This document shows, one piece after another, positions 5,965 to 43,209 of a stretch of DNA of 64,000 bases. A model generated the notes under the pieces. That model was not told the origin of the DNA and made no database searches. It worked only from the letters and a program-made list of their open reading frames with translations. Positions within the stretch are counted from its first letter, which is position 1; each line of letters begins with the position of its first letter. The position numbers were made by a program, and so were the translations under genes. This DNA is from an uncultured Candidatus Saccharibacteria bacterium (GTDB taxonomy: Bacteria; Patescibacteriota; Minisyncoccia; UBA6257; WO2-44-18), in contig CAZDBT010000001.1 of the NCBI GenBank assembly GCA_964503795.1, positions 4,518-68,517 of the forward strand, in the 5' to 3' direction.

Positions 5965-6924
5965 TTAACCTTTTCGCCGCAACTTCTTCATGATCGGAAT
6001 TTCGCTCTCCAGCACCCGCTTCACTCCATCGCCGCGCGCCGCTTCGAACTCTCGAATCCTGCCGACCAACTCGGCAAAATCTTTCGGCTCCAGACTGGCG
6101 GCCTGATCGCTGCCCCACATCTTGCGATCCAGGGTGATATGCCGCTCGATCACGCAAGCGCCCATTGCCACCGCGCAGAGAGTGGTATAGAGACCGGTCT
6201 CATGACCGCTATAACCGACGGGGATCCCAGAGTGATGCAGGCTTAGGTGGCGAATGACCTCCAGATTCAACTCCTCAAGTTTGGCCGGATAGGTTGAAAC
6301 GCAATGGAGCAGTACCAACGCCGGCTCTTTCCAAGCCGGCGCCAACACTTTGATGGCCTCCTTGATCTGTGAGTCAGTGCTCATTCCCGTGGAAAGGATC
6401 GCGGGCTTGCCCTTCGAGTAGATATGCCGGAGCAAACCATCATCGGTCAGAGAAGCGGAAGCCACCTTATAGCAGACGGGGTCGAACTCGTCGAAAAAAT
6501 CGACGCTCGCCTCATCCCAACAGGAAGCGAACCACATCATCCCGATCTCCTTGCAGTAGCGATCGATCTCTCGGTACTCATCGCGCGTCAACTCCAAGGC
6601 CCATTTCAGATCACCGTTGGTGGTGTTCCGGTAGCCGGATTTCTCCAAACGCTCGATGGCTTCTGCCGACAAAATACCACGTCGGATAGCATCGTACATC
6701 ATTTCCGCCGGGACTTCTCTGGCTTTTGCCAGCTCTTCCGGAGAATAAACCACCGGAACGGTCCGCTTCTGGAATTTCACCGCCTGGCAACCGGCTGCCC
6801 TTGCGGCATCGATCAGTTGCTTGACCAGCTCCATCCTGCCGTTGTGATTGATGCCGATCTCTGCGATGACAAAGGTCGGACGGTCGCTGCCGAGCTTCAC
6901 CCCACCGATGACGATTTCTCTCAC
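5965..6924 (-). CDS. Nonulosonic acid synthase, NeuB/PseI/LegI family (N-acetylneuraminate synthase-like)
   Basis: 319 aa. FVIAEIGINHNGRMELVKQLIDAARAAGCQAVKFQKR is the hallmark NeuB motif. The start codon appears to be GTG (cac at 6922-6924) with a GAGGAT SD. Confidence 0.75.
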   Translation of the reverse strand: MREIVIGGVKLGSDRPTFVIAEIGINHNGRMELVKQLIDAARAAGCQAVKFQKRTVPVVYSPEELAKAREVPAEMMYDAIRRGILSAEAIERLEKSGYRNTTNGDLKWALELTRDEYREIDRYCKEIGMMWFASCWDEASVDFFDEFDPVCYKVASASLTDDGLLRHIYSKGKPAILSTGMSTDSQIKEAIKVLAPAWKEPALVLLHCVSTYPAKLEELNLEVIRHLSLHHSGIPVGYSGHETGLYTTLCAVAMGACVIERHITLDRKMWGSDQAASLEPKDFAELVGRIREFEAARGDGVKRVLESEIPIMKKLRRKG

Positions 6925-6997
6925 TGTTGATCCTCGCGAATGAAGGTTCTGGTATCAGCTTAGGTACCAGTGGCCGGTTATGTCAAGCTAGAGAAAA

Positions 6998-28331: not shown

Positions 28332-29400
28332 TGATTAGTTTTACTAGATTATCCACGGTGCGTTCGATGGTGAAATTCTTTGCTTTGTCTCGCGCGGCCA
28401 ACGCAACATGATTACTAAAATTGCTATCTATCTGCATCCTATTTATGGCTGCGAGGATCTGCTCCTTGTTGTTCGGCTCTATCAAGATGCCCTCTTTGCC
28501 GCTTTCTATCAACTCAGGAATACTTCCTATATTGGTAGCAATTACCGGCAAGCCGGCGTTCATTGCCTCAGCGACCGCAAAAGAAAAACTTTCGAAAGCG
28601 GTATTCAAAATGAACAATCCCGCATTGGGCAGGTATTCTTTTAGCATCACTTCACGACTAACATCTCCGGGCAATTCAACGCGATCCTCAAGTTTGAGTT
28701 CCTTGATGATGTTAACTAGCCTGCCTCGATCTGGTCCGTCACCGATAATGACTAGCCGGGAACCGACAAGCTCGGGTTCAGTCATCAAGTGAATTAGAAA
28801 ATCAAAGCCCTTCCAGGGCACAAGACGCCCCACCGATATGAACATCTTTGGATCCCTAGCTGTCATAACCACCGGATCAAATTTGATCCCATTATAAATC
28901 GTTTTCACCCTGTCAGGATTTTTTATCCAACCGCCAACGAGTTTCCGAAAATAGTTGCTTGGCGTGATCACCAGATCCGCGCGACCGACAACGAACCGTT
29001 GGATCGCCCGCAATAACCCGACTCGCCAACCGTATCTTTTATGCTGGAAATCATCTATCGTATCGCCCACGCCGAAACGTTGCGCCGATTGTTCCCAAGC
29101 ATAATCTCCCGCGACGCGAATAAAAAATCTCTTGCCCCGTAGTCGCGCGGCGATCAACGCCGGCAAACCAACGCTCACCGGATCTTGCGCGTAAACGACG
29201 TCGCAATTTTTAGCCTTCCAAAAACAGTCCCACAGATACAAACAATGCCGGATCAACTTCGGCTTCTTCCGATATTCCGTAAAGGCCAGATGATCAACCA
29301 CAAAGCCGCGGCTTGGAAGCTCTTTTTCCATAAGAACCGTGTAAGTGGCCGGACCGCCAATATCCGGAGGATATATTCCGGTAGCAATTAGGATTCGCAT
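28315..29400 (-). CDS. GT4 glycosyltransferase
   Basis: 361 aa. ESFSFAVAEAMNAGLPVIATNIGSIPE is a GT4 motif. Confidence 0.7.
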   Translation of the reverse strand: MRILIATGIYPPDIGGPATYTVLMEKELPSRGFVVDHLAFTEYRKKPKLIRHCLYLWDCFWKAKNCDVVYAQDPVSVGLPALIAARLRGKRFFIRVAGDYAWEQSAQRFGVGDTIDDFQHKRYGWRVGLLRAIQRFVVGRADLVITPSNYFRKLVGGWIKNPDRVKTIYNGIKFDPVVMTARDPKMFISVGRLVPWKGFDFLIHLMTEPELVGSRLVIIGDGPDRGRLVNIIKELKLEDRVELPGDVSREVMLKEYLPNAGLFILNTAFESFSFAVAEAMNAGLPVIATNIGSIPELIESGKEGILIEPNNKEQILAAINRMQIDSNFSNHVALAARDKAKNFTIERTVDNLVKLINEHTG

Positions 29401-30539
29401 AATTTTTGGAAAATATTCCTCATTTTTGCCGCAACAATATCCCAGGTATATTTTTCGGCGATCAATTTTTTGCCATTCGCGATCAGCTTCTCCCGTAAGT
29501 TCCGGTCGCCGGACAAACGGTCTAGCTTTTCGGCTAGATCCCCGGGGTCATCCACTTTAGCGAATAACCCGGTCTCGCCGTCTTTGAGAAAATCCGGTAT
29601 ACCCCCAACATTAGTGCCGATGATCGGCAGACCGATCGCCATCGCTTCCAGAAAAGAATTACCCAGACCCTCCGAACGCGACGCCCGCGCAAAGACAGTA
29701 GACCGTAGCAAGTAGGAGGGTATTTGGTCTGGCTCTATATGACCAAGAAACTGCACCTGATCTCCAATGCCCAGATCTTTAGTCAACAATTCAAGTTTTT
29801 GACGTTCCGGTCCGTCGCCCAGGATCAGTAGCTTGTAACTAGCAGTATGTAACAGTGGTAATGACCTGATCAAAATATCAACGCCATTTTTGTACACTAA
29901 TCGTGAGGTGGTGATAATTATATGAGACTTATTGGTCCTATAAGACTTATCGGTCCTATAATTGGCCAAATCTACCCCATTAGGAATAACTTCGATCGGG
30001 CAACGGGCTCCGTGCCGGCGCGCAAAATCCGCCAAAAAATTGCTGATGACCTGAATATAGTCCGCTTTTTTGAATATTTTTTTCCAGAGCGGATAGAAAA
30101 TGCCGACTTTTCCTAAAATATGCTCCTCGGAGTCCCCCTCTTGCAAAGTAAGCAGAAGAGGCACGCTCGGGTGCCGCAGTTTAAATATCAAGGCGGCTAT
30201 TCCCGCGTAAGAAGCCATCACCGCCCAGATCGCCGAAAAAGGCCGCCCGCGATGGATCTTTTCCGCGACCCGGACTGCCTGAAAAATATAAAGGATCTTT
30301 CCGAAAAGTCCTCCGTAGTAACTGCGCGGGGAGTTTTTCCCCCTGCCGATGCGCAAGATCGAACAATTATCAAAAGATTCCGCCGTAGGCCAGCTTCGGT
30401 CAAATTTCTTAGTAAAAACCACAAAGTCACTGGCCGGAGCGCGCGAGATGATCTCTTTAAGGGCGATCTCCGCCCCTCCGATGAACGGCGGATAAGCCAA
30501 ACTAAAAACCCCGATCGCTTGTTTTGACATCCGTCTCAT
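29388..30539 (-). CDS. GT4 glycosyltransferase carrying an in-frame 18-bp tandem duplication
   Basis: 383 aa. EGLGNSFLEAMAIGLPIIGTNVGGIPD is a GT4 motif. Codons at 29925-29960 encode the tandem YRTDKS-YRTNKS, derived from the duplicated motif AGACTTAT(T/C)GGTCCTATA. Confidence 0.7.
   Translation of the reverse strand: MRRMSKQAIGVFSLAYPPFIGGAEIALKEIISRAPASDFVVFTKKFDRSWPTAESFDNCSILRIGRGKNSPRSYYGGLFGKILYIFQAVRVAEKIHRGRPFSAIWAVMASYAGIAALIFKLRHPSVPLLLTLQEGDSEEHILGKVGIFYPLWKKIFKKADYIQVISNFLADFARRHGARCPIEVIPNGVDLANYRTDKSYRTNKSHIIITTSRLVYKNGVDILIRSLPLLHTASYKLLILGDGPERQKLELLTKDLGIGDQVQFLGHIEPDQIPSYLLRSTVFARASRSEGLGNSFLEAMAIGLPIIGTNVGGIPDFLKDGETGLFAKVDDPGDLAEKLDRLSGDRNLREKLIANGKKLIAEKYTWDIVAAKMRNIFQKLCES
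29925..29960. repeat. Tandem 18-bp direct duplication of the GGTCCTATAAGAC motif family (copy 1 of 3 loci)
   Basis: agacttattggtcctata immediately followed by agacttatcggtcctata, 17 of 18 identical. Confidence 0.8.
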
Positions 30540-30571
30540 AGTATCGTATAAATTGTAAAACTTAAAGACTT

Positions 30572-31681
30572 ATGAAGAAGCAAAAAATACTCTACTTGGT
30601 CACTAAAGATGATGTGGGCGGCGCGCAGAAATACGTCGCCGACCTCTCCGGCGGCCTAGATCCCGAGCAATTTGACATCAAGGTGATCACCGGCGGAAAA
30701 GCCGGAGCGCGGTTTTTATCTAATTCCTTTTGGCCTTTCCTGCTGTTCATCAATGACTGGCTGGCGTTGGGAGGATTATTCCTGATCTTCCGGAGAGAGC
30801 GGCCGGCGATAGTCCATCTTAACAGCTCTAAGGCAGGAGTGATCGGCGCTATAGCGGCGAAGCTGGCCGGAGTGCCTAAGGTGGTCTTCACGGCCCATGG
30901 CTGGGTTTTTAATCCGGACAATTACCTAAGCCTCTCCCGACGCTGGACCTATATCGCCTTTCATAAATTCGCCGGCTATTTTCAAAATAAGATCATCAAC
31001 GTTTCCGAATATGACCGCCAGCTGGCGCTAAAATATCACATTGCCGATCCCGCCAAACTGGTCACCATTCACAACGGCCTGGACTGGCAGAATCTGAAAT
31101 TTCTGGATAAAAAAACCGCCCGCAAAGCGCTGGCGACTCTGGCGCGAACCAGATCCGATAATGAAATTTGGATAGGCTCGATCGGCCGACTGGTCGCCGA
31201 AAAAAGTCATGAGGATTTTATTGAGGCCGCCGCCCTGGTAGAAAATCCACAAACCAAGTTTTTTGTTATCGGCGACGGATCTTTAAAAACAAAATTGGAA
31301 CGCCGGATCAAAGCAGTCGGATTAGAGAACCGGTTCTTCCTGATCCAAAACATTTCACCAGCCGCTCCTTATCTGAAGGCCTTTGATCTGTTCCTGCTCT
31401 CCTCGATCAAGGAAGGACTGCCGTACACTTTATTGGAAGCAATGACCGCCCAGCTGCCGATCATCGTCACGCGCGTCGGAGGGATGCCGGAAATAATTTC
31501 CGACCGGGGATTGATAATGCCGCCCCGCGAACCGGAGGAGTTGGCTCGCGCCATCAATCATCTGATCTCCAAACCGGAAGAGGCCAAAAAAATAGCGGCG
31601 GCGGGTAACGAATTTCTCAAAAAGAAACTGGGGATCGAGCAAATGTTGGCCGCCACCAGAGAAATTTATCTTAACGACTAA
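30572..31681 (+). CDS. GT4 glycosyltransferase
   Basis: 369 aa. KEGLPYTLLEAMTAQLPIIVTRVGGMPE is a GT4 motif. Transcribed divergently from the upstream GT4. Confidence 0.7.
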   Translation: MKKQKILYLVTKDDVGGAQKYVADLSGGLDPEQFDIKVITGGKAGARFLSNSFWPFLLFINDWLALGGLFLIFRRERPAIVHLNSSKAGVIGAIAAKLAGVPKVVFTAHGWVFNPDNYLSLSRRWTYIAFHKFAGYFQNKIINVSEYDRQLALKYHIADPAKLVTIHNGLDWQNLKFLDKKTARKALATLARTRSDNEIWIGSIGRLVAEKSHEDFIEAAALVENPQTKFFVIGDGSLKTKLERRIKAVGLENRFFLIQNISPAAPYLKAFDLFLLSSIKEGLPYTLLEAMTAQLPIIVTRVGGMPEIISDRGLIMPPREPEELARAINHLISKPEEAKKIAAAGNEFLKKKLGIEQMLAATREIYLND

Positions 31682-32471
31682 GAGCGTCCACTTCGTTCTG
31701 GACCTGCTGTTGCTGGAGCCCGGTAATTCCCGATAACTTCAAGAACCGGTTGAAATATTCCAACGCCTGCTCTTTATTCTGGACGGACTTATAATAAAAC
31801 CCGAGCTGAAGAAGCAAATTGGGATCGGCAGGTAAAACTTTCAGACCAGCCAGCAGAACATCATCTATCTGGTCGGATTTTGCTTTGTAGAAATCACGGT
31901 AGAATTCCGCCAAACCAAGGTAAGTATAATCGGAATTAGGGTCAAGCTTTAAAGCTCCTAGAAAATTTTGCTCCGCCTTTTGATTATCCCCCAAGTAAGA
32001 GGCGTACAAATTTCCGAGGTTGTAACAGTTGAGGGCGTTGCTGGGGTTGAGTAATTTGGCATACTCCCAAGCATCCCGGACACCGAAAAAATTATCAAAA
32101 TTCTTCTTCACTAATCCGATGTCCATCCAATTGGTTTCATCGGTCGGATCGGCCTCAACCAATTTGATGATGTCAGCCAGTTGATTCCGTTTCTGCTCCA
32201 CAAACTCGGCGGGGTATTTGGCTAAAATTTGCGGATCGCCTAAAAATTTCAAAGCCTGCCCACTATATTTTTTAGTGGTGGCGGGTTTGATAGAACCTTG
32301 GCTGACTGGCGGCGGCGCGAGCAAAGATCCGGTAGATGGCGTAGCGGAAGCAAGGTCGTCCGGATTACTTCCGGCAACTGGAGAACTTCCACGATGAACC
32401 ACCGAATAGACCGCAGTCGCGGTTACGGCCAATAATCCAAAAACGCCGACGGAAAGTAAGATTTTCTTCAT
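31671..32471 (-). CDS. Secreted tetratricopeptide-repeat (TPR) protein
   Basis: 266 aa. An N-terminal hydrophobic signal/anchor (LLSVGVFGLLAVTATAVYSVV) is followed by TPR-like repeats (NALNCYNLGNLYASYLGDNQKAEQNFLGALKLDPN...). Confidence 0.6.
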   Translation of the reverse strand: MKKILLSVGVFGLLAVTATAVYSVVHRGSSPVAGSNPDDLASATPSTGSLLAPPPVSQGSIKPATTKKYSGQALKFLGDPQILAKYPAEFVEQKRNQLADIIKLVEADPTDETNWMDIGLVKKNFDNFFGVRDAWEYAKLLNPSNALNCYNLGNLYASYLGDNQKAEQNFLGALKLDPNSDYTYLGLAEFYRDFYKAKSDQIDDVLLAGLKVLPADPNLLLQLGFYYKSVQNKEQALEYFNRFLKLSGITGLQQQQVQNEVDALSR

Positions 32472-32572
32472 AGATTTAAAAACATAGAAATCTTAACCCA
32501 ATTCAAAACCCCCCGCAAGGGGGGTTTTGAATTCCTAACAGATCTCAAGATGTCGGTTGCCCGACAAACCCG

Positions 32573-35500
32573 TTAGAGACCGAGTACGACCGCAAGACCA
32601 GTGTCGCCGTTGGACAGTCCAGGGACTAAGAATCCGTTGAACCAGTCGTAGTCAACAATGCTCTGTGAGGTATTAGTGGCGTTACCGGACCAGATGAAGT
32701 CATCATCATCTCCAGCATCCACATTGGCAGCCGTGGTTGCGAAGATATAACGACCAGAGGACCAGTCATCACCACCCGAGGTCAGATCTAAGCCGCCTTC
32801 ACTGACGCCCGTTGTTCGATCACCCAAGCTTCCAGTTGAATTATTCAAGCTGGAGAAGGTCGCATCGCCGTCCATCTTGGTAGAGATAGATGGGGTGCTC
32901 GTGCCACCAGTTGCATCTGCGATCAGAGCAAAATACTTGGTAGTACCAGCCGAGACGCGGATAGCTTCAGCGGTAGAACCGCCGGTAGCATCAGTTGGAT
33001 TGAACAAGACGCTTACCCTCGGCGAAGTAGAGCTGTACACCGGGGCATTGGCGTTATCAGCTCCTAGCCGATCGTGAGACGCATTGGCCAAGCCTCCTTG
33101 GTTCAAGAGACCAGAGTTATCAAACGTGTTGCAAGACGGAGAGGAAAATCCGGAATCCGAATAGCAATACAGTCTGAAGTTGGTCACCTTGAAGTTCGCT
33201 GGATGCTGAGCGCCGTCGTTAAGCTCGGTGCTGCTAGTAGCAACCTCAAAAGTCATCTTGTATAAGCTCACACCGTTGCCGCTCGAAGGAGCAGATACGG
33301 AGAACTTGTATAAGGTTTGATTGGTGTTATTAGCAAACTTGCTCGTCCCTAAATCAAGTTTAGAGATAGTCGGAATGCTTCGGGCAATTCTTGCGCCATT
33401 GGAAGCCGAGTCCGAACCACCAGAACCGATCGTGAGACCGGAAGATAGTCCTACGCCGACAGCGCCAGTATTGGTTTTGTCGGAGCTGTTATCCGCGTCG
33501 TAGTTCACGACCACTAAGTGGCCAGGTCGAGCAGCCAATCCGATGCCGATGTTCCCAATGTCACCCTTGATCGTCAAGAGCACTTGGTCATCCTTCGGAA
33601 CAGTCACGCCAGTCAGGGTAGCAGTCGCGAAATCGCTCGCGCTAAAGACTGCTTCGCCGACTTTAGTAGAACCATTCCAAACAGTGACCTTGCTCAAGTC
33701 GTTCGGGGTGTTGGAAGCCATACCTCCATAAGCAACACCGTTGCCGGTGGAAGTAGCGATCTGCAAACCAAGGGTGTTCACGCTGATCGCCTCATTAGTG
33801 GCATTCAATCGCAGGACAGCCAAGGTGTTATCCGTGGTGCCGGCTTGGAGCCACTTCAAGGACGGACTGGAAGAATCCAGGCTTATAGCCAAACTACCAC
33901 CGCTGGCAGCCGTAATTATGCGGCCGTTGTCAGTAGTGCCGGTTTCGGTAATAGATTGACCGGAAACCGCGCCATTACTGGACACGTTGGTGGCAATGCT
34001 CGCAATACCCCAAGACCACTGGCCGCCAAGCTTAGCGCCGGAGATCAAGTTACATTTCATAGAAAGTATCTTGATGGTGCCCTTTGCAAGGGTCATCGGC
34101 GTATCAAGCGAGAAGGTAGAGTCTAATGGAGAAGTGTCGGAGTTGGTCGGATTAATGGTGTTAGTACCAGTAGTCAAAGCAGTCGCGCCATCCCACAGCT
34201 GACAATTAGTTAGGTCATCAGCTGAATTGGAGCCGCTGAAAGTGAGACGAAGCTTCATTGAATTCAGCTTCACATCTTCACCGGAACCGCTAGCATCTAG
34301 GACGTACCTGGTAAACTCATAGCCGTTGACTCCAGCTACCACGGTCTGGGCAGTAGAACTGCCAGTGCCAGAATTGGTGTTGGAATCCAAAGTAACAACC
34401 AATGCGGCGGCCCGAACAGTCATCGTGTTGGTAGTTACGGCGCTGGCCGGGGTCGGAGTAATGCTTACTCCGGAAACCGTACCTCTAACCGTAGTCCAAT
34501 CAGAACTTGGTGTCGTGGAAGCAGCTACAGTGTCGCCATTCGAGAAGTCGGTGTTGTACTTACCTTTTAAGGTGTAGGTATGACGGCCAACTTTGAAGGT
34601 AACAGTGTCGCTGAAGCGGATGGCATTATTGCCACCAGCTACTCCATCAACCGGACCAGCTACTACGGCGCCATTTTCGTCTACCAAAGTGATATTGGTG
34701 ACATCGTTGGTGTCGATAGTACCGCCAGTTCCGGCAGACTCAATGGTAGCCGCATCAAAATTCATTGCAGCAACGGTGATATCTTCACCTTTTACGTCAA
34801 CGACGATGCCCCCCAAAGGCTGGTTAGGCAAGTTGATGGCTACATTTTGAGCGCCGACAGTTGTGGCGTTCTGAACGCTGATGCTGCCAGTGCCGATCTG
34901 CACCTGATAAGCATCAAACCGAGGCTCGGACGCATGGAACAAACCATCATCAGCCGCTGAGCCAGTTTCACTAGCCGTCGGAGAGAGGGAATATCCATAA
35001 GTCAGACCGGTAACCTGAAGATCCTCGTAGCGGTACAGATCAAAGTCAACAGTTCGGTTAGAACCATTAACCACATCGCCCTGTACGTGGAGCTCCTTGT
35101 TGAGGCCTTTCTCGATCTTTATGCCAGAACCGAATTTGGCAGTGTAGTACTTACCATCGGCGCTAACCATGGTGTCATAACTGACGCCATCGAGAACGAT
35201 CTTAACATTAGCCAAGTCGCTAGCCGCGGCAGAACCGGATTGGTTCAAACGGATAGACTTAACCAATACATCTTCATTGGTACCTGCATTTAATCTCAAG
35301 CCGGTAAAGCGATATCCCACGGTGCCGACTTCTTTAGTCTGGCCGGATCCTGGGTCATAAGCGCCTCGAGCAAGAGTTACGCTGCCGATAGACAATGTAG
35401 AATTCACGGTCATTAAGTTGCCTACCATCGGGTAGGAAGCGTTAACCGCGGAAGAACCAGAGACTTCCACGCCTACCAAAGCCAAAGAAACTAATTGGCC

Positions 35501-36331
35501 AGCATAAGCGTCTTGGTCACTGTCGGAATCGCCGGCAAGAGTGATCGTACGGGTCTGGCCAGCTTTCACGACAAAGGAGTCGGTCAAGCGGGCGCGGTGA
35601 TCCGAACCGAAGGTCTTGGACGAACCAAGCCGAATGCCATCTTCATCCAGGTCTACGACTCCGGAGAAAGCGGCATCAGCGCCTTGGCCCTGTCTTTCCA
35701 CTGTCAAAGCTTTGACGGTTACGTCTCCATCAGCGGAAGCGCGGAACACCAACTTGGTGAACGGCCGGCTGGCGAAGGATTCGCCGAAAAGACCCGCAGC
35801 GGGTTGATCAGATGCTAAGGAAACGGTCAAACCAGAACCAACCGGAGTTGGAGCCGGAGTACCAGGAGGAACCGGAACGGCAGAGGCTGATAAAGCTGCA
35901 TATTTAGCCCGAGACTTCGGACCAAAATATCCTACTGCCGGAGCAACTCCATTGGCGGCTTGCCAAGAGGCAACCGCAGCGCTGGTTTTTGCACCAAAGT
36001 AGGTAGTTTCATAGCCAGAAGAACCAGCAGTGCCGGCAACGCCGACGATAGCATGGCCTCCATCATTCAAATACTTTTGCAAGCACATTACGTCATCTCC
36101 TTTTACACCCACGGTGAGGTCGCGAGTGAAATTGCAGGCAACGAAAGAAGGATTGCTACCACCAGCCAATTGTGACTGCAAGGCGGCAATCTGTGCTAAC
36201 AAAGCATTGATTTGGGCTTGCAAGTCGGTCTGCGCGTGAGCGACAGGAACCAACAGGGCAAAACCCGAAAGTGATGCAACGGTCGCCACTGAAATGGCGA
36301 TCGAGGCAAATTTCTTTGTTATATTTCCCAT
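32573..36331 (-). CDS. Giant secreted cell-surface protein: signal peptide, coiled coil, PG_binding_1-like domain, then about 1000 aa of Thr/Ser/Gly-rich beta-rich sequence (S-layer-like)
   Basis: 1252 aa. The N-terminal signal is MGNITKKFASIAISVATVASLSGFALLVPVAHA, and QTDLQAQINALLAQIAALQSQL is a coiled coil. LTVGVKGDDVMCLQKYLN matches the peptidoglycan-binding-domain motif. The remainder is low-complexity T/S/G/V/A-rich. Confidence 0.7.
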   Translation of the reverse strand: MGNITKKFASIAISVATVASLSGFALLVPVAHAQTDLQAQINALLAQIAALQSQLAGGSNPSFVACNFTRDLTVGVKGDDVMCLQKYLNDGGHAIVGVAGTAGSSGYETTYFGAKTSAAVASWQAANGVAPAVGYFGPKSRAKYAALSASAVPVPPGTPAPTPVGSGLTVSLASDQPAAGLFGESFASRPFTKLVFRASADGDVTVKALTVERQGQGADAAFSGVVDLDEDGIRLGSSKTFGSDHRARLTDSFVVKAGQTRTITLAGDSDSDQDAYAGQLVSLALVGVEVSGSSAVNASYPMVGNLMTVNSTLSIGSVTLARGAYDPGSGQTKEVGTVGYRFTGLRLNAGTNEDVLVKSIRLNQSGSAAASDLANVKIVLDGVSYDTMVSADGKYYTAKFGSGIKIEKGLNKELHVQGDVVNGSNRTVDFDLYRYEDLQVTGLTYGYSLSPTASETGSAADDGLFHASEPRFDAYQVQIGTGSISVQNATTVGAQNVAINLPNQPLGGIVVDVKGEDITVAAMNFDAATIESAGTGGTIDTNDVTNITLVDENGAVVAGPVDGVAGGNNAIRFSDTVTFKVGRHTYTLKGKYNTDFSNGDTVAASTTPSSDWTTVRGTVSGVSITPTPASAVTTNTMTVRAAALVVTLDSNTNSGTGSSTAQTVVAGVNGYEFTRYVLDASGSGEDVKLNSMKLRLTFSGSNSADDLTNCQLWDGATALTTGTNTINPTNSDTSPLDSTFSLDTPMTLAKGTIKILSMKCNLISGAKLGGQWSWGIASIATNVSSNGAVSGQSITETGTTDNGRIITAASGGSLAISLDSSSPSLKWLQAGTTDNTLAVLRLNATNEAISVNTLGLQIATSTGNGVAYGGMASNTPNDLSKVTVWNGSTKVGEAVFSASDFATATLTGVTVPKDDQVLLTIKGDIGNIGIGLAARPGHLVVVNYDADNSSDKTNTGAVGVGLSSGLTIGSGGSDSASNGARIARSIPTISKLDLGTSKFANNTNQTLYKFSVSAPSSGNGVSLYKMTFEVATSSTELNDGAQHPANFKVTNFRLYCYSDSGFSSPSCNTFDNSGLLNQGGLANASHDRLGADNANAPVYSSTSPRVSVLFNPTDATGGSTAEAIRVSAGTTKYFALIADATGGTSTPSISTKMDGDATFSSLNNSTGSLGDRTTGVSEGGLDLTSGGDDWSSGRYIFATTAANVDAGDDDDFIWSGNATNTSQSIVDYDWFNGFLVPGLSNGDTGLAVVLGL

Positions 36332-36462
36332 TGTTTAATTTAACTTTTTTACTATCTTAATGTTTTTAATTGCTACTAAAAATTGTTTCCCGTCCCTTCC
36401 CAAGCGCTGATGCGCAGGAGAATCGACCACGAACCGAAAACCAATCTTTATTTCAAACCTTA

Positions 36463-36500
36463 TGGGACTTATAAGTCTTATAGGACCTATAGGTCTTAAG
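36463..36500. repeat. Overlapping perfect palindromes GACTTATAAGTC and GACCTATAGGTC (motif family copy 2), 5' of the giant surface protein gene
   Basis: gggacttataagtcttataggacctataggtcttaag. Both 12-mers are perfect palindromes and share the TATAGGACC core with the 29925 locus. Confidence 0.75.
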
Positions 36501-36602
36501 TAATAACTGGGGATCTTTTTACTGTGAGGAATAAAAAAACTCTCCCAATTGTGGGAGGGCTGAAAATTACGGATTATAAGCAAACAGAACGTAAACTTAC
36601 CC

Positions 36603-36655
36603 GTAAATGACTCAGCCTCACACAAAGTCATTACACTAGTTATAACGAGGCTGTT
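36603..36655 (+). terminator. Plus-strand rho-independent terminator-like hairpin in the intergenic region
   Basis: CAGCCTC, a 27-nt loop, then GAGGCTG followed by TTTTTGTTTT on the plus strand. Both flanking genes are on the minus strand. Confidence 0.4.
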
Positions 36656-36664
36656 TTTGTTTTA

Positions 36665-37306
36665 TTACGCCCTATTTTTGGCTGAATAATAGCTACCGGG
36701 ACCACCGCTACCAATGCGTTCAATTAGGCCTTGAGCGCAAAGTTTTTGCAGGTCATAACGCATTGTTCGCTCGCTGATATCCGGGAATGCGGCAAGGATA
36801 TCTTTTAGCGGCGCCCGCCCCTTGTCTGATTGCCGGATCTTTTCCAAAATTGCCGATTGCCGCATTGTTGCCGAAAACCCATTGCCGCTTCCGCTTTCTT
36901 CCGTGATCAAGAGCTCGGATGCGGCAATTCCAGAGGAATGCCGGATGTCCGCAAAGGTCTTTGCCGGATAATTTGCCGCATTTCCGGCATTTTGAAAAAC
37001 TTTGTCCAAATTCGGCAATCCATCGATTCCCAGTGTTTGCCGCATTGCCGCATTAACAGATTCCAACTCTCCTAAGATAACCTTGGCATTCACCGGCTCA
37101 ATTTCATAAAGCGCCTGACCGATCTTCAGAACGGCATCAATAGCAGACGACGTTTTTATAGCGACGTCAAAATTCTCGGAAGCAACTTCTTCCATGAAAC
37201 GAAAGGCCAGACTTTCAATGCTTTGTTTGAGTTGTTGACGACGGATCTGCGCCGCCACTCGCAAGAGGGCATAACAGATCTCTATGGATTTCTGGTTTGC
37301 AAACAT
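36665..37306 (-). CDS. Putative transcriptional regulator with C-terminal winged-HTH (DeoR/Fic-associated type)
   Basis: 213 aa. The C-terminus ILEKIRQSDKGRAPLKDILAAFPDISERTMRYDLQKLCAQGLIERIG looks like a wHTH DNA-binding module. Divergent from galU-like. Confidence 0.45.
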   Translation of the reverse strand: MFANQKSIEICYALLRVAAQIRRQQLKQSIESLAFRFMEEVASENFDVAIKTSSAIDAVLKIGQALYEIEPVNAKVILGELESVNAAMRQTLGIDGLPNLDKVFQNAGNAANYPAKTFADIRHSSGIAASELLITEESGSGNGFSATMRQSAILEKIRQSDKGRAPLKDILAAFPDISERTMRYDLQKLCAQGLIERIGSGGPGSYYSAKNRA

Positions 37307-37332
37307 TAAAAATTATATTAAGCTTTTGCTAT

Positions 37333-38172
37333 ATGAAAGTCAAAAAGGCCATCGTGCCGGTAGCCGGGTTGGGGATCAGAGTTATGCCTCTCACGTTGCA
37401 TCAGCCAAAAGCGATGATCGGTATTGTGGACCGACCGATCATTCATTACGTGCTGGATGAAATAGTAGCCGCCGGAGTCAGAGAAATAATCTTCGTTACC
37501 GGCCCTAATCAGCCAGAGTTTAAAAAATATATTAGCTACCTGGAAAGCAACCCCGAATGGCAAAAGCTAAAAGTGAAGTTTGAATTTGTCGTGCAGCAAG
37601 AACCATTGGGAAATGGCGACGCCGTTTATGCCGCCCGCTCCTTCATTAAAAATGAGCCCTTTTTGGTCTGCTTCGGCGATGACCTGCTGGCGGATAAAAA
37701 TCCCCCATTAAAAACCTTGGTCGGTTTGTTTCAAAAAACCGGAGCGCCGATAGTGACATTGGAACCGGTGCCCGGCCAATTGGTTTCCAGCTATGGCGTG
37801 GTCAGATCCATTCCATCCCCGTTGGCTAAAGACTTACACCTGATCACGGACGTAGTGGAAAAACCCGAGATCGGCAAAGCGCCTTCAAATCTGACGATCA
37901 TCGGAAGATATATACTGACACCGGCCATTTTTCAAGAGATCAAAGCGCTCTACCCATACCAAGGAAAGGAGATCGCGCTGGCCCACGCCCTGAAAAATTA
38001 CGCGGCCGGGGGAGATAAGTTGTATGGGTGGCATTTTCGGGGAAAAAGATTTGATGCCGGATCAAAGATCGGCATTTTAAAAGCCCAGGTGTATTTCGGC
38101 CTGCGACATAAAGACTTCGGACCGGAATTCCAGAAATATCTAAAGGCCCCAGCGGGAAAAGGCCAGAACTAA
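37333..38172 (+). CDS. Sugar-1-phosphate nucleotidyltransferase, UTP-glucose-1-phosphate uridylyltransferase (GalU)-like
   Basis: Start at MKVKKAIVPVAGLGIRVMPLT (ATG 37333). The AIVPVAGLG-R--P-T motif is typical of GalU/RmlA-type nucleotidyltransferases. Confidence 0.7.
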   Translation: MKVKKAIVPVAGLGIRVMPLTLHQPKAMIGIVDRPIIHYVLDEIVAAGVREIIFVTGPNQPEFKKYISYLESNPEWQKLKVKFEFVVQQEPLGNGDAVYAARSFIKNEPFLVCFGDDLLADKNPPLKTLVGLFQKTGAPIVTLEPVPGQLVSSYGVVRSIPSPLAKDLHLITDVVEKPEIGKAPSNLTIIGRYILTPAIFQEIKALYPYQGKEIALAHALKNYAAGGDKLYGWHFRGKRFDAGSKIGILKAQVYFGLRHKDFGPEFQKYLKAPAGKGQN

Positions 38173-38850
38173 AACCAGGAGCAGAACGAATATATTGATC
38201 AGGATCAGCGCCGATCTCTTGTTTAGTTCGCCCCGCAAATATTGGTCGCAAAAAGAAATAACCACGGCGTAAAACAGCATAGAGATGTTGGAGGCGCTGA
38301 CAAAACCAACCGGCAGAAAATTCGCCGCCCAAGCTATCTGGGAACTAAGAAAAGCGGTCAGCCAAAAAGCCAGCCGTTTTTTTAGAAAATCCTTGGACAA
38401 AAAAAGCAAAACGGAAAAAAGAAGCGGCAATGTCCACCAAAGGCTTCCTTGATCGTAATAAAAGAACATCAGGAAGGACGGGTAGGCCAAAGCGAAACTT
38501 AAGAACACGCGCCAGCCGCCTCTTTGGATAAGGATCAGGTCTTTAATGCCGATCAAGACATAGAAAAGGAAGGGAAAATAGACGACCGCAAAATAAAAAT
38601 CGATCGTATCCGTGAAGGTCCGGATGAACAAGATTGCGCTAAGTAATAACACAAAAAAGGTCCCGGCGAGCTCCAAAGTCCGGAAAAACGGCCTAAGATA
38701 GAGGAAGATGGAAACCGCTAAGAAAAACAGGATCGGAAGAGTAGAAAAACCACCCAGTTTTGCAAGAGCAAAAAAAGCGGCAAAAACGAGCGCCTTAAGC
38801 GCTAACGCTGATTGCGGATTCCGAAAAACCGATTTTAACTTTGTCACCAT
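38140..38850 (-). CDS. Hypothetical polytopic membrane protein
   Basis: 236 aa, 6-7 hydrophobic segments. No family recognised. Confidence 0.4.
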   Translation of the reverse strand: MVTKLKSVFRNPQSALALKALVFAAFFALAKLGGFSTLPILFFLAVSIFLYLRPFFRTLELAGTFFVLLLSAILFIRTFTDTIDFYFAVVYFPFLFYVLIGIKDLILIQRGGWRVFLSFALAYPSFLMFFYYDQGSLWWTLPLLFSVLLFLSKDFLKKRLAFWLTAFLSSQIAWAANFLPVGFVSASNISMLFYAVVISFCDQYLRGELNKRSALILINIFVLLLVLVLAFSRWGL

Positions 38851-41410
38851 CTTTAATTTCCCCGCCGATTATCTTATCGGCGAGCTTATCAAGGATCGTC
38901 TTTTGTATCAAACGGCGGATCGGCCGGGCTCCATATTCAGGATCAAATCCATTCTCCACGATATATTTACGGGCCGCCGCGTCTACATTAATAGTGATCC
39001 CCCGCTCTTTCAGGCGATCTTTCACCTCCTCTATCTGTAGATCGACTATCCTTTCTATTTCCTTTTTCGTCAAAGCATTGAAGATCACCACTTCGTCCAG
39101 TCGGTTCAAGAACTCCGGCTTGAAAGTGCGCTTCAATGATTCCGTAACCTTACTTCGGAAACCTTCCTCGGCCGTTTCCTGATGATTTTCATTGACCGAC
39201 GAAAATCCGATGTTCGACATAGCTTTAAAATACTGGCTACCAACATTCGAAGTAAGCAAAATTATCGAATTCTTGAAATTCACCATCTTGCCCTTACTGT
39301 CGGTCAGACGGCCATTATCAAGTATTTGAAGGAGAATATTAAATACTTCCGGATGAGCTTTCTCGATCTCATCAAACAAAATAAGACTATATGGACGGTG
39401 GCGCACCAACTCGGTCAACTGGCCTCCATCTTCAAATCCAACATAACCCGGCGGCGATCCGATCAATCGGGAAACCGAGTGCTTCTCCATATACTCGGAC
39501 ATATCGATCCGGATCAACGCCTTTTCATCGTTGAACATGAACTCCGCCAAAGCTTTGGCAAGCTCGGTTTTACCGACACCGGTCGGACCCAGGAACATAA
39601 ATGATCCGAGCGGGCGATCTTCATCGGAAAGTCCCGCGCGCGCGCGTCGCAAAGAACTGGCTACCGCCTTGATCGCCTCTTGTTGACCGATGACCCGTCC
39701 CTCCAAGGCATCTTCTATTCTAACCAACTTTTTGGCCTCGGATTCCAACATCCGACTGACCGGAATTCCGGTCCAGCGGGAAACCACCGCCGCGATATCT
39801 TCGGCATCCACCATTTCCTTGATAAAACCGGAGGATTTGGCGTGTTTCTTGGTAAAACTCTTATAATCTTTTTCCGCCTGGGGCAAACTGCCGTAAACGA
39901 TCTGCGCTACCGACTCCAGATCCCCCTCTCGTTCCGCTAATTCCGCCTGACGTTTCAGATCCTCAATTTTTTTCCGCAGGTTGTGCAAATTTTCAAAAGT
40001 TATTTTTTCCGCATGCCAACCAGCCGACAACTCGTCGTTCTTTTCCTTTAATTTTACGACTTGAGAATCAATGGCCTTCATTCGGCTTTTGCTTTTAGCG
40101 GAAGTTTCCTGGGCAATAGCCGATTTCTCTATCTCCAGCTTGGTGATCTCCCTTCTTATTTTATCCAGTTCCGCTGGCAGGCTTTCGGTCTCCAAGCGGC
40201 GGGCCGCGGCGGCTTCATCCATAAGATCAACGGCCTTGTCCGGCAAAAAGCGGTCGGTGATATAACGCGCGGCCAGATTGACTGCGGCCGTGATCGCCTC
40301 ATCACTGATCTGCAAACCATGATGCATCTCATATTTTTCCTTCAAACCGCGCAAGATCGAAACCGCGTCATCAGAGGTCGGCTCCTCAACCATGATCGGC
40401 TGAAAGCGCCTTTCCAGTGCCGGGTCCTTCTCAATATGACGCTGGTATTCCCGGATCGTAGTCGCTCCGATAGCGTGCAGCTCGCCCCTAGCCAACGGCG
40501 GCTTCAGCAGATTGGAAGCGTCGATTGCCCCTTCGGCGGCGCCGGCGCCTACTATCATATGTATCTCATCTATGAACAAAATGAGGCGGCCAGCCGAATT
40601 CTGGATCTCCTTAACGAAGGCCTTCAGGCGGTCTTCAAATTCACCTCGGAATTTCGTACCGGCGATCAGCGAACCAAGGTCCAACATGATTATTTCCTTG
40701 TCCTTCAAAGTTTCCGGCACATCCCCAGCCACAATTCTTTGGGCCAAACCCTCCACTATCGCGGTCTTGCCAACGCCGGATTCACCGATCAAAACCGGAT
40801 TATTTTTGGTGCGGCGACTTAAGACCTGGATCAGGCGGCGCAATTCTTCCTGCCGGCCGATCACTGGGTCCAGCTTTCCCTCTTTGGCGCGCTCGGTCAG
40901 ATTTACCGCGTATTTTTCCAAAACCTGGAATTTGCTTTCTGGAGTCTCGTCGGTGATCCGGGTTGATCCGCGAAGTTGCGCCAAAGCCCGGAAAGCCAGG
41001 TCCCGTTTCAGACCGGTCTTTTCCAACATTTTTTGAGCGGACGAGGTGGCATCAAGAATGCCCAACAGCAAATGTTCGCAGGAAATATATTCGTCTTTTT
41101 GAGAAATAGCGATCTTGCCGGCTTTTTCCAAAACCTGCATCAATTCCGGAGAAAGATAAAGTTGCCCGACATTGGAGGCGGTGAAGATCTTGGGCATCTT
41201 TTTCATTTCTGCCTCAACGTCACGCAAAAGATTTTCTACGTTCAAGCCGGCCTTGATCAACATCGGACGAACTAAAGTTTGCTCGTCTTGTAAAAGAGTA
41301 TGGAGAAGGTGAAGCACGCGAAATTCTCCATGATTCCGCTGCGCCGCCAGTTCCTGGGCGTTCTGAAGAGCCTCTTGGGCTCTGATAGTGAATCTATTAA
41401 AAGAAGGCAT
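38795..41410 (-). CDS. clpB: ATP-dependent chaperone ClpB (Hsp100)
   Basis: 871 aa. Two AAA+ modules (GESGVGKTAIVEGLA and GPTGVGKTELAKALA Walker A motifs), a coiled-coil middle domain and a Clp N-domain. Confidence 0.95.
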   Translation of the reverse strand: MPSFNRFTIRAQEALQNAQELAAQRNHGEFRVLHLLHTLLQDEQTLVRPMLIKAGLNVENLLRDVEAEMKKMPKIFTASNVGQLYLSPELMQVLEKAGKIAISQKDEYISCEHLLLGILDATSSAQKMLEKTGLKRDLAFRALAQLRGSTRITDETPESKFQVLEKYAVNLTERAKEGKLDPVIGRQEELRRLIQVLSRRTKNNPVLIGESGVGKTAIVEGLAQRIVAGDVPETLKDKEIIMLDLGSLIAGTKFRGEFEDRLKAFVKEIQNSAGRLILFIDEIHMIVGAGAAEGAIDASNLLKPPLARGELHAIGATTIREYQRHIEKDPALERRFQPIMVEEPTSDDAVSILRGLKEKYEMHHGLQISDEAITAAVNLAARYITDRFLPDKAVDLMDEAAAARRLETESLPAELDKIRREITKLEIEKSAIAQETSAKSKSRMKAIDSQVVKLKEKNDELSAGWHAEKITFENLHNLRKKIEDLKRQAELAEREGDLESVAQIVYGSLPQAEKDYKSFTKKHAKSSGFIKEMVDAEDIAAVVSRWTGIPVSRMLESEAKKLVRIEDALEGRVIGQQEAIKAVASSLRRARAGLSDEDRPLGSFMFLGPTGVGKTELAKALAEFMFNDEKALIRIDMSEYMEKHSVSRLIGSPPGYVGFEDGGQLTELVRHRPYSLILFDEIEKAHPEVFNILLQILDNGRLTDSKGKMVNFKNSIILLTSNVGSQYFKAMSNIGFSSVNENHQETAEEGFRSKVTESLKRTFKPEFLNRLDEVVIFNALTKKEIERIVDLQIEEVKDRLKERGITINVDAAARKYIVENGFDPEYGARPIRRLIQKTILDKLADKIIGGEIKDGDKVKIGFSESAISVSA

Positions 41411-41456
41411 TGTAGTTTTAACGGATTATACCACTAAAATATGAAATTTCAAGAAC

Positions 41457-42629
41457 CTATACTATCTTAATTATAGCAGAAATCACGGAATCAATATCCT
41501 TCTTTGTGGTTTGTCTGCCCAGACTAAATCTTAAACTGCCTGAAGCGCGATCAGCCGAGAAGCCCATCGCCTCTAAGACGTAAGAGGCTTTGGAAACTCT
41601 GGTGGAGCAGGCGGCACCCGGAGAAACCGCGATTCCCACCAAATCAAGCCGGATCAGCAGGTCATGAGCCTTATGGCCGGGAAAATAAAGATTAAGATTA
41701 TTCGGCAATCTTTCGGTCATAGAGCCGTTCAACAGAACTCGCTTTTTCTCCAATGACTTTTGGATCTTGGCTAAGAAATAATTCCTTAATTCCGCAACCC
41801 GCTTCGACTCCCTGGTTCGCAAAACGCCGGCCAGCTCTACTGCCTTTGCAAAACCAACCATCAATGGAACGTTTTCCGTTCCGGAACGCAGACCGTTCTC
41901 CTGTTTACCGCCGGTAATCACCGGCTTCATCAACGGACTCACTGTCTTATTCACATAAAGAGCGCCGATCCCCTTCGGACCGTAGATCTTGTGGGCCGAT
42001 AGGGTCATCAGATCCACGCCCAACTTTTGGACGTTGCAATCCAAATATTGAAAGGATTGCGCCGCGTCGGTGTGAAAATACGGAAAGCTGGTTTTATTTT
42101 TAGAACGATGCCGTTGGATGATCTCGGAAATTTGCCTGATCGGTTGGATAACGCCGATCTCATTGTTGGCGTGCATCACCGAAACTAAAACAGCGCGGTC
42201 ATTGATCGCCGCCTCCAGCTTCACCAGATCGATCACGCCTTCTTTGTCCACCGGAATAATAATCGTTTCGGCCTCCGACTTCAGATCTGCGCAGGTATTT
42301 AAAACCGACTCATGCTCAATGGCAGAAATAATTATTCTTGGCTTTAAAGATCTCCGGCCAACCGACGCTCCCCCAACCAGACCACGGATCGCCAAATTAT
42401 TCGCCTCTGTCGCCGAGCCGGTAAAAATTATCTCTTCATAATCGGCGCCGATCGCCTTCGCGATCTTTTGGCGAGACTCAAAGACCGCCCGGGAGGCTTT
42501 TTGGCCGAAACGATGCAAAGCTTGAGCGTTACCATAGATATCGGTAAAGTACGGTCCCATAGCGGCCAGCACCTTCGGGTCAACCGGGGTTGAAGCTGCG
42601 TGATCCAAATAGATCTCTTTCATCCTCAT
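41457..42629 (-). CDS. Cysteine desulfurase (IscS/NifS/SufS class V aminotransferase)
   Basis: Start chosen at MRMKEIYLDHAASTPVDP (ATG 42629). The longer upstream extension lacks homology. SAHKIYGPKGIGALYV has the PLP lysine. Confidence 0.85.
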   Translation of the reverse strand: MRMKEIYLDHAASTPVDPKVLAAMGPYFTDIYGNAQALHRFGQKASRAVFESRQKIAKAIGADYEEIIFTGSATEANNLAIRGLVGGASVGRRSLKPRIIISAIEHESVLNTCADLKSEAETIIIPVDKEGVIDLVKLEAAINDRAVLVSVMHANNEIGVIQPIRQISEIIQRHRSKNKTSFPYFHTDAAQSFQYLDCNVQKLGVDLMTLSAHKIYGPKGIGALYVNKTVSPLMKPVITGGKQENGLRSGTENVPLMVGFAKAVELAGVLRTRESKRVAELRNYFLAKIQKSLEKKRVLLNGSMTERLPNNLNLYFPGHKAHDLLIRLDLVGIAVSPGAACSTRVSKASYVLEAMGFSADRASGSLRFSLGRQTTKKDIDSVISAIIKIV

Positions 42630-42699
42630 GATCAAGTATATATAGTAGGACCAGTCGGACTTCTTTACAAATCCGGCTAAAAGGGCTAGTTTATAACCA

Positions 42700-43182
42700 A
42701 TGAATACTTTCTTCAACAGCAATTTAGGCGTCCAGCTTAGCGCCGAACAGGTCAGTCGGCATATTGTGGACTTCATGAAGGCCGACCCTTTCCGGGAATA
42801 TAAGATCACCATCGGCACCGATTCGGAAAAAGACTCCAATGATGAAGCTGATTTCGTCACCGCGATCGTTATTCATCGCGTGGGCAACGGCGCCCGATAC
42901 TTTTGGCGCCGGATCTCCGGAAAAACCAAATTCCATACTCTGCGCGACCGCATTACCCAGGAAGTTCTGATATCGCTGGATATAGCCAAAGAATTCCTTG
43001 AGGCTATCTCCAAGTTTGACGCGCCTAAATATGATTTTGAGATCCATTTGGATATCGGCCAGAACGGCGCGACCAAGGTGATGATCCAAGAACTAGTAGG
43101 AATGGTGCGCGCTCATAACTTTGAGGCCAAAACCAAACCGGACAGCTACGCCGCCACTAATGTCGCCGACAAACACGTATAA
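42700..43182 (+). CDS. YkuK-like (DUF458) RNase-H-fold protein
   Basis: 160 aa. YKITIGTDSEKD and FVTAIVIHRVGNGARYF resemble the YkuK family. Assignment is from memory and tentative. Confidence 0.4.
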   Translation: MNTFFNSNLGVQLSAEQVSRHIVDFMKADPFREYKITIGTDSEKDSNDEADFVTAIVIHRVGNGARYFWRRISGKTKFHTLRDRITQEVLISLDIAKEFLEAISKFDAPKYDFEIHLDIGQNGATKVMIQELVGMVRAHNFEAKTKPDSYAATNVADKHV

Positions 43183-43209
43183 GACCTATTGGTCCGATAA
43201 GGCTTATAA
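43178..43209. repeat. Imperfect palindrome TATAAGACCTATTGGTCCGATAAGGCTTATAA (motif family copy 3)
   Basis: Overlaps the stop codon of the YkuK-like gene. Shares the TAAGAC/GGTCC/GATAAG elements with the 29925 and 36463 loci. Confidence 0.6.

Follow-up and report, generated by a model that had tools for sequence, protein, structure and literature searches.

A stretch of 64,000 nucleotides from an uncultured Candidatus Saccharibacteria bacterium (contig CAZDBT010000001.1; the window in what follows) carries short near-palindromic repeats at three loci, and the question is what these repeats are and whether they serve their host. The original prediction had grouped the three sequences into one motif family and had offered a transcription-factor operator, a methylase or restriction target, or a slippage-prone minisatellite as explanations. 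With moderate confidence we read the three sites as probable passengers, namely solo copies of a dispersed (YTATAR-GWC)n repeat that is tied to genes for four-helix-bundle suffix proteins, in a manner that resembles repetitive extragenic palindromes (REP) and their REP-associated tyrosine transposases (RAYT). The three arrays are as follows.

29920-29961, no strand: array 1, with four good units at 29926-29961, GACTTATTG GTCCTATAA GACTTATCG GTCCTATAA, and degenerate units on both sides
36457-36501, no strand: array 2, a degenerate unit at 36457 plus four units at 36466-36501, GACTTATAA GTCTTATAG GACCTATAG GTCTTAAGT
43174-43209, no strand: array 3, CACGTATAA at 43174, then three units at 43183-43209, GACCTATTG GTCCGATAA GGCTTATAA

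Each array consists of 3-5 tandem 9-nt units with the consensus YTATAR-GWC. In the window loci the units take the form G[A/T]C-YTAT-NR with GAC and GTC alternating, the period is 18 nt, and a dyad is centred on each TATA. A position-weight scan for two adjacent units gave 19 matches in the window, of which 18 fell at the three loci, compared with 0.9 in shuffled sequence. The matrix had been trained on the three loci themselves, and the comparison was hence repeated in a non-circular way with the raw 36-mer of locus 1 as query: locus 2 matched at 31 of 36 positions and locus 3 at 23 of 36, and the rest of the 64 kb reached at most 21 of 36. The three sequences are therefore one family, at the places where they had been reported. 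The single k-mers GGTCCTATA and GACYTATARGTC (mismatches allowed) were only marginally enriched, and the signal lay in the tandem arrangement. The window units are contiguous 9-mers without spacers, unlike the 24-40 nt direct repeats with unique spacers of a CRISPR (clustered regularly interspaced short palindromic repeats) array. Rfam returned only three tRNAs at gathering threshold for the 64-kb window and nothing but sub-threshold noise for the locus 2 region. Scans for sigma-70 promoters and intrinsic terminators around the loci gave no specific signal at the arrays, only a terminator hairpin upstream of array 2.

The family extends far beyond the window. An array detector that requires at least three head-to-tail 9-nt units of G-W-C-Y-T-A-T-N-N, with at most one mismatch per unit, picks up arrays in loci L007-L126; the same detector picks up all three window loci and no other site in the window. 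In species-representative genomes, a three-unit degenerate pattern occurred at a minimum of 120 loci, where about 16 were expected by chance in 596 Gb. The matches listed span about ten phyla, with Chlorobi (Chlorobium), Bacteroidota (Bacteroidales/Prevotella), Planctomycetota, Verrucomicrobiota including Akkermansia, Lentisphaerota, Acidobacteriota, Nitrospirota, Deltaproteobacteria, Cloacimonadota and several groups of the candidate phyla radiation (CPR) among them. Within these matches the arrays have 3-13 units, most commonly 3-5, and many loci carry several arrays, in some cases as inverted pairs (e.g. L041, L054). Naive calling of open reading frames (ORFs) placed the array clusters in 57 co-directional, 24 convergent and 8 divergent intergenic regions, with the array starting at a median of 6-14 nt past the upstream stop codon. 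The window copies match this typical placement: locus 3 lies over a stop codon, locus 2 is intergenic and locus 1 is in-frame within a gene. GAC and GTC units relative to transcription numbered 109:108; for a consensus that equals its own reverse complement, such a lack of bias is expected and uninformative. The units differ from one another mainly at one position, with no spread of the variation over all adenines. The suggestion of a methylase or restriction target fell short, since GGWCC or GAC-N6-GTC is present in only a part of the units, many members have TAAGAC or TAAGTC instead, and the motif is tied to no restriction-modification gene. Neither the searchable literature (8 million full texts) nor Rfam yielded a description of the arrays. 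Rfam gave no match in eighteen array-bearing loci, and BLAST of a window array against PLSDB also returned no match.

The arrays are linked to one gene family. Among 101 ORFs adjacent to arrays, the only recurrent Pfam family was PF05635 (23S rRNA intervening-sequence protein), the others being unrelated housekeeping genes. The PF05635 genes linked to arrays encode products of ~190 aa that also match NCBIfam TIGR02436 and TIGR04258 ('four helix bundle suffix domain') and are 40-73% identical across phyla. By Pfam, NCBIfam and fold, the array-linked gene belongs to the PF05635/TIGR02436 proteins, which include the 23S rRNA intervening-sequence protein, XCC0516, BT_0352 and Avd. A second ascertainment was made by protein similarity and not by the repeat. 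It drew at least 557 relatives from metagenomes, of which the best 80 were examined, and canonical arrays were present at 69 of these 80 four-helix-bundle suffix genes. In the 80 genes, 67 arrays were internal, at a fixed position ~330-370 nt into the gene, 19 lay directly upstream and 19 lay downstream within 0-35 nt; the farther flanks of the same loci held only 4 arrays in 270 kb. We conclude that gene and array are linked.

The internal array encodes the segment ...RSYRTYKTYIE.... In an AlphaFold model (mean predicted local distance difference test score, pLDDT, 77) this segment is predicted to form an excursion between helix 3 and helix 4, and the best structural matches of the model were the PF05635 proteins XCC0516 and BT_0352 (2gsc and 2rld at the top). 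Tyrosine codons in the internal array are TAT:TAC 78:14, compared with 64:70 elsewhere in the same genes (Fisher p = 1e-8), and its AGG arginine codons are kept even where the G+C content of third codon positions exceeds 0.6. This codon choice demonstrates, at the level of sequence, that the internal array is constrained as nucleic acid beyond what coding needs.

Repeat and gene also vary together. Divergent subfamilies of the gene carry other 9-nt repeats at the same three positions, and within a locus the internal variant equals the flanking one; examples are GTCCGACAN in L200, L204 and L209, GATCGGTCN in L203 and CTGTACGTC in L201. In L107, two four-helix-bundle suffix paralogues (801-1470 and 6206-6940) lie 5 kb apart, each with its own variant, one flanked by canonical AGACCTATA arrays and the other by TCAGAATCC arrays. 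The TCAGAATCC arrays of this contig also encode an Asn/Gln-rich N-terminal extension of the paralogue. Prevotella nigrescens offers an example in a complete small chromosome (NZ_CP082843.1, of which two pieces were scanned). There the gene is followed by a TTCCTAGGA-type array (L336 20654-20689), and a solo array of the same type, a perfect 44-nt palindrome, lies 224 kb from the gene (L337 36078-36125) between convergent MaoC-family and pflA genes.

The gene family itself is very large, with at least 8000 clusters in one protein search. Most contigs that carry its members are only 1-3 kb long, a length that points to regular interruption of short-read assembly by the flanking arrays; metagenome-assembled genomes probably understate the family. 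In metagenome loci L137-L176 (e.g. L146 2401-4100) the gene is often inserted, co-oriented, between cas7 and cas4 of type I-C systems. Among 75 neighbouring ORFs of four-helix-bundle suffix genes, 16 were cas7 (PF05107) and 15 were cas4 (PF01930), and in some cas loci the downstream nonamer array provides the cas4 start codon and first residues. This insertion is the only connection of the arrays to CRISPR, and it agrees with publications that record PF05635 genes at unusual sites, among them cas operons and the intervening sequences of rRNA (PMC3936711; PMC10910872).

Turning to the window itself, the three arrays sit in different surroundings, for which two further features are needed.

29388-30539, minus strand: glycosyltransferase family 4 (GT4) gene, assigned by Pfam, which hosts array 1 in its inter-domain linker
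36542-36557, minus strand: terminator-like hairpin after the DeoR-type helix-turn-helix (HTH) gene, CTCCCACAATTGGGAG followed by T7, conserved in relatives

The GT4 protein has Pfam Glyco_transf_4 at residues 20-192 and Glycos_transf_1 at residues 202-358. In the minus-strand frame array 1 encodes YRTDKS-YRTNKS, residues 194-205, in the linker between the two domains; the motif does stand in-frame in coding DNA, as had been claimed. Read as YRTDKSYRTNKS, it uses the same frame as the SYRTYKTY segment inside the four-helix-bundle suffix genes. Array 2 had been placed in the 5' region of a giant surface-protein gene. This placement has to be corrected, as the gene (PG_binding), whose product begins with a signal peptide, has its start at 36331 and the array is intergenic, 135-170 nt upstream of it; the terminator-like hairpin behind the DeoR-type HTH gene precedes the array by ~40 nt. 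At locus 3 the reported overlap with a stop codon is real: the TAA of the RNaseH_like gene (43180-43182) falls within the first unit, and 12 nt separate the end of the array from the ATG of a 3'-5' exonuclease gene.

Syntenic contigs of related groundwater Patescibacteria were compared with the window, itself part of a metagenome-assembled genome of Patescibacteria (CPR), and no array was present in any contig recovered. At locus 2 the relatives L003 and L004 keep the DeoR-type HTH gene, the giant gene and the intergenic region between them, and show a single clean gap of 33 nt precisely at the array, the rest of the intergenic region being 77% identical. The junction between the RNaseH_like and exonuclease genes measures 38 nt in the window; relatives at 91% and 83% identity have 18 nt here and one at 82% has 0 nt, in each case with no nonamers. 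The window has 27 extra bases here, preceded by GTATAA and ending in TTATAA. Loci 2 and 3 are therefore clean gains of 27-33 nt. Locus 1 is different. The GT4 homologue of 84% identity has a linker of identical length with an unrelated sequence and no array, and a 68% homologue also lacks the array. In an alignment of 20 sequences the linker is the most variable block, and the window gene is no longer there than its homologues. Since the linker is as long as that of the 84% homologue, array 1 represents the replacement of a hypervariable linker. A length insertion at this site was rejected on the same comparison. Together, the comparisons with relatives indicate that the window arrays are recent and lineage-specific. 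They are the same in independent assemblies of the population: identical arrays were found in the Logan assemblies of SRR8931230 (locus 1), SRR8931232 (loci 2 and 3) and SRR8931233 and SRR8931234 (locus 3), which are ~99.96% identical consensus assemblies of one population; at this level no variation in copy number was seen.

These observations lead to the reading that we favour. The home of the repeat would be the four-helix-bundle suffix genes (PF05635/TIGR02436 and TIGR04258), with arrays in the internal loop and at both ends, and new copies would arise by templated copying of array sequence into TA-rich places. Two of the window arrays would have entered short TA-rich stretches, directly at a stop codon in one case and within a leader in the other, and the third would have overwritten a tolerant inter-domain linker of GT4 in a Tyr-Arg/Lys-Ser/Thr reading frame. 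The four-helix-bundle suffix protein or its locus may maintain, bind or propagate the arrays, by analogy with REP and RAYT, and the three window copies would be passengers with little or no host function. We infer the partnership because the gene is flanked by, and contains, a repeat that is also scattered elsewhere, as is the case for REP with RAYT. For the host, the arrays in the window are probably of little consequence.

The analogy can be followed in some detail. The REP elements of Proteobacteria, with their mosaic arrangements (bacterial interspersed mosaic elements, BIMEs) and hairpin forms (REPINs) and the RAYT gene tnpA-REP, resemble the arrays in being imperfect palindromes of ~30-40 bp with many intergenic copies, typically just behind stop codons and between convergent genes. 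In both cases, too, a single dedicated gene has the repeat on its own flanks, the feature from which the tie between REP and RAYT was first recognised. The differences are equally clear. A REP is a single palindrome with a conserved 5' GTAG head, whereas the arrays are tandem nonamers with a variable number of units and no fixed head; REPs are species-specific, whereas the nonamer consensus is common to many phyla; and the nonamer repeat, unlike REP, also occurs inside the coding region of the linked gene. RAYT is an IS200/IS605-like Y1 HUH transposase, whereas the array-linked PF05635 protein is a small four-helix bundle without HUH or Y1 motifs.

Other known repeats come less close. The heptamers of cyanobacteria known as short tandemly repeated repetitive (STRR) sequences are likewise dispersed, short, tandem, non-triplet-neutral, intergenic and of no known function, but their unit is 7 nt and not a 9-nt quasi-palindrome, and the arrays are phyletically far wider and have a linked gene family. 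Rickettsia palindromic elements (RPEs) resemble array 1 as palindromic repeats that sit in-frame at tolerant surface positions of proteins; they are 100-150 bp long, genus-restricted and add length, whereas array 1 measures 36-45 nt and brings no net change in length relative to the nearest homologue. The array-linked genes differ from Avd of diversity-generating retroelements (DGRs) in that no reverse transcriptase and no pair of template and variable repeats lies beside them; the RVT family was absent among the 75 neighbouring ORFs. A DGR-like mechanism was considered and rejected, as there is no reverse transcriptase and no adenine-specific variation. Descriptions of the PF05635 family that we found mention neither the nonamer arrays nor their dispersal.

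Several points weigh against the reading of the window copies as dispersed passengers of this gene. The 64-kb window contains no four-helix-bundle suffix gene, and among the matches listed, the gene lies within 8 kb at only ~8% of the array-ascertained loci. No DNA-cutting or -pasting enzyme is associated with the arrays, and no transposase family recurred among the 101 array-adjacent ORFs (within the matches listed) or the 75 neighbours of the linked genes. The same-length replacement at locus 1 is not predicted by a simple insertion model. The ORF calling was naive, and some placements 'inside ORF' are read-through artefacts. In viral contigs (L213-L332), the pattern matched mostly collagen-like Gly-Pro-Ile coding repeats of phage and giant viruses, so that the three-unit pattern alone is not fully specific. 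The arrays may also serve the host, for instance by forming an RNA hairpin or by binding a protein. The same viral contigs contained a few genuine non-coding arrays, e.g. (GACCGATAA)13 in L231, and no four-helix-bundle suffix gene. A phage collection held no homologue of the array-linked protein, and PLSDB held only one.

Beyond the window, we put forward more tentatively the idea that the arrays and the four-helix-bundle suffix genes together form an undescribed selfish or regulatory system that crosses phyla. In such a system an Avd-like helical-bundle protein, with no transposase, would recognise a nucleic-acid repeat of 9-nt periodicity that is carried in its own coding loop and at the ends of its gene and would be copied to further places in the genome, some of them in protein-coding linkers. 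The subfamilies of the protein would co-evolve with the variants of the 9-mer, and the three window sites would be fresh products. The association of repeat and gene is widespread and appears to be undescribed.

The main alternative is that the arrays are DNA- or RNA-binding sites of the four-helix-bundle suffix protein, the scattered copies forming a regulon or a decoy set. The window copies would then tune the giant surface-protein and exonuclease genes and perhaps the GT4 mRNA as well. This explanation overlaps with the passenger reading and is compatible with most of the data, and we regard it as rather unlikely, though not as a distant prospect. PF05635 proteins are pentameric helical bundles, and Avd, the homologue in DGRs, binds nucleic acid. 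The modelled fold of the linked protein, with its matches to 2gsc and 2rld, is consistent with such a role, as is the finding that nucleotide conservation of the internal array exceeds coding need. The co-variation of 9-mer variant and gene subfamily is what a co-evolving protein and its site would be expected to show, and 3-5 units is the commonest array size. In this respect the arrays recall the cooperatively bound 8-bp met boxes of MetJ and the heptad arrays of ribbon-helix-helix proteins, where 3-5 boxes also stand head to tail with a dyad at the box junctions. Unlike met boxes, however, the window arrays are not conserved at orthologous promoters, and the family lies mostly at the 3' ends of unrelated genes. 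Close relatives have the same genes without the arrays, so any regulation in the window would be new and dispensable. The window has no four-helix-bundle suffix gene, and binding itself is putative.

Position just behind stop codons could also reflect selection for hairpins in RNA or DNA, like those of REP or Correia elements, that stabilise transcript ends, serve as RNase III sites or act as weak terminators. All arrays are quasi-palindromic, with predicted free energies of -8 to -15 kcal/mol, and they show enrichment behind stop codons and between convergent genes; the inverted array pairs (L041, L054) and the perfect 44-nt palindrome of P. nigrescens fit as well. The folding z-scores of -1.4 to -2.2 relative to shuffles are modest, however, and the arrays lack a U-tract. 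Locus 2 already stands behind a proper terminator hairpin, locus 1 lies within coding sequence, and the arrays are missing in relatives. We consider a hairpin function unlikely as the explanation of the arrays.

That the arrays are operators of the adjacent DeoR-type HTH regulator (36665-37306) or of another local transcription factor, as the original prediction had proposed for the adjacent regulator, is highly improbable. The palindromic half-sites 9 nt apart, the position of locus 2 between the regulator gene and the giant gene and that of locus 3 just upstream of a start codon would suit an operator. A conserved operator would be expected to persist in relatives, yet at the orthologous loci in L003 and L004 the regulator, its target and the 77%-identical leader are kept and the array is replaced by a clean gap of 33 nt, which weakens this explanation. 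Moreover, arrays occur beside unrelated housekeeping genes in about ten phyla, and one copy lies in coding sequence. The window arrays should not be taken as regulatory sites of the surface-glycan and surface-protein genes.

Independent local replication slippage at each site, chance or assembly artefact can be excluded: tandem 9-nt units can expand by slippage and TATAA-like seeds lie in the flanks (GTATAA before array 3, CATAAG after array 2), but independent slippage cannot give 31/36 identity at loci 6.5 kb apart, one consensus recurs across phyla, and identical arrays are present in assemblies of different sequencing runs. Of the slippage-prone minisatellite suggested before, the tandem structure stands; the suggested length variation of the glycosyltransferase finds no support, given that the linker equals that of the 84% homologue in length and that the arrays are identical in the consensus assemblies.

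If the link between array and gene is true, it offers a first way into the function of the PF05635 four-helix-bundle suffix family, which is very large and uncharacterised and whose members are scattered among cas operons, defence islands and the intervening sequences of rRNA. A further gain would be a REP/RAYT-like repeat system without a transposase that is common to many phyla, including the reduced genomes of CPR bacteria. Recognition of the arrays improves annotation, as they break metagenome assemblies, make spurious ORFs and can rewrite protein linkers. Nonamer arrays leave two of three frames open on each strand and thus create or extend false ORFs. A 98-aa ORF at 36335-36631 (minus strand) reads through array 2 (...LRPIGPIRLISPIRF...) and is almost certainly a spurious artefact.

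The intergenic region around array 2 has a conservation of its own. Between the HTH gene and the giant PG_binding gene, the segment 36332-36664 is 77% identical at the nucleotide level in relatives, compared with ~68% for the flanking proteins, and contains long invariant blocks and the conserved terminator-like hairpin, with no match in Rfam. Judged from this pattern of conservation, it may be a conserved leader or a small RNA.

The GT4 linker likewise varies in ways that do not involve the repeat. In alignment A1 (columns 221-246), the homologues P0003, P0006, P0008, P0015 and P0103 often have a duplication of 6-7 residues of their own in the linker, for example YENTKK/YESTKN in P0003 and NFQFSIS/NFQSKSK in P0103, which are encoded without nonamer DNA. 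The linker may generally be prone to short tandem duplications.

The window is dominated by a gene cluster for surface-glycan biosynthesis. Positions 1-32000, upstream of the giant surface protein, form a large surface-polysaccharide cluster with seven epimerase/dehydratase-type genes, several GT4 and GT2 glycosyltransferase genes, three methyltransferase genes and a pyruvyl transferase gene.

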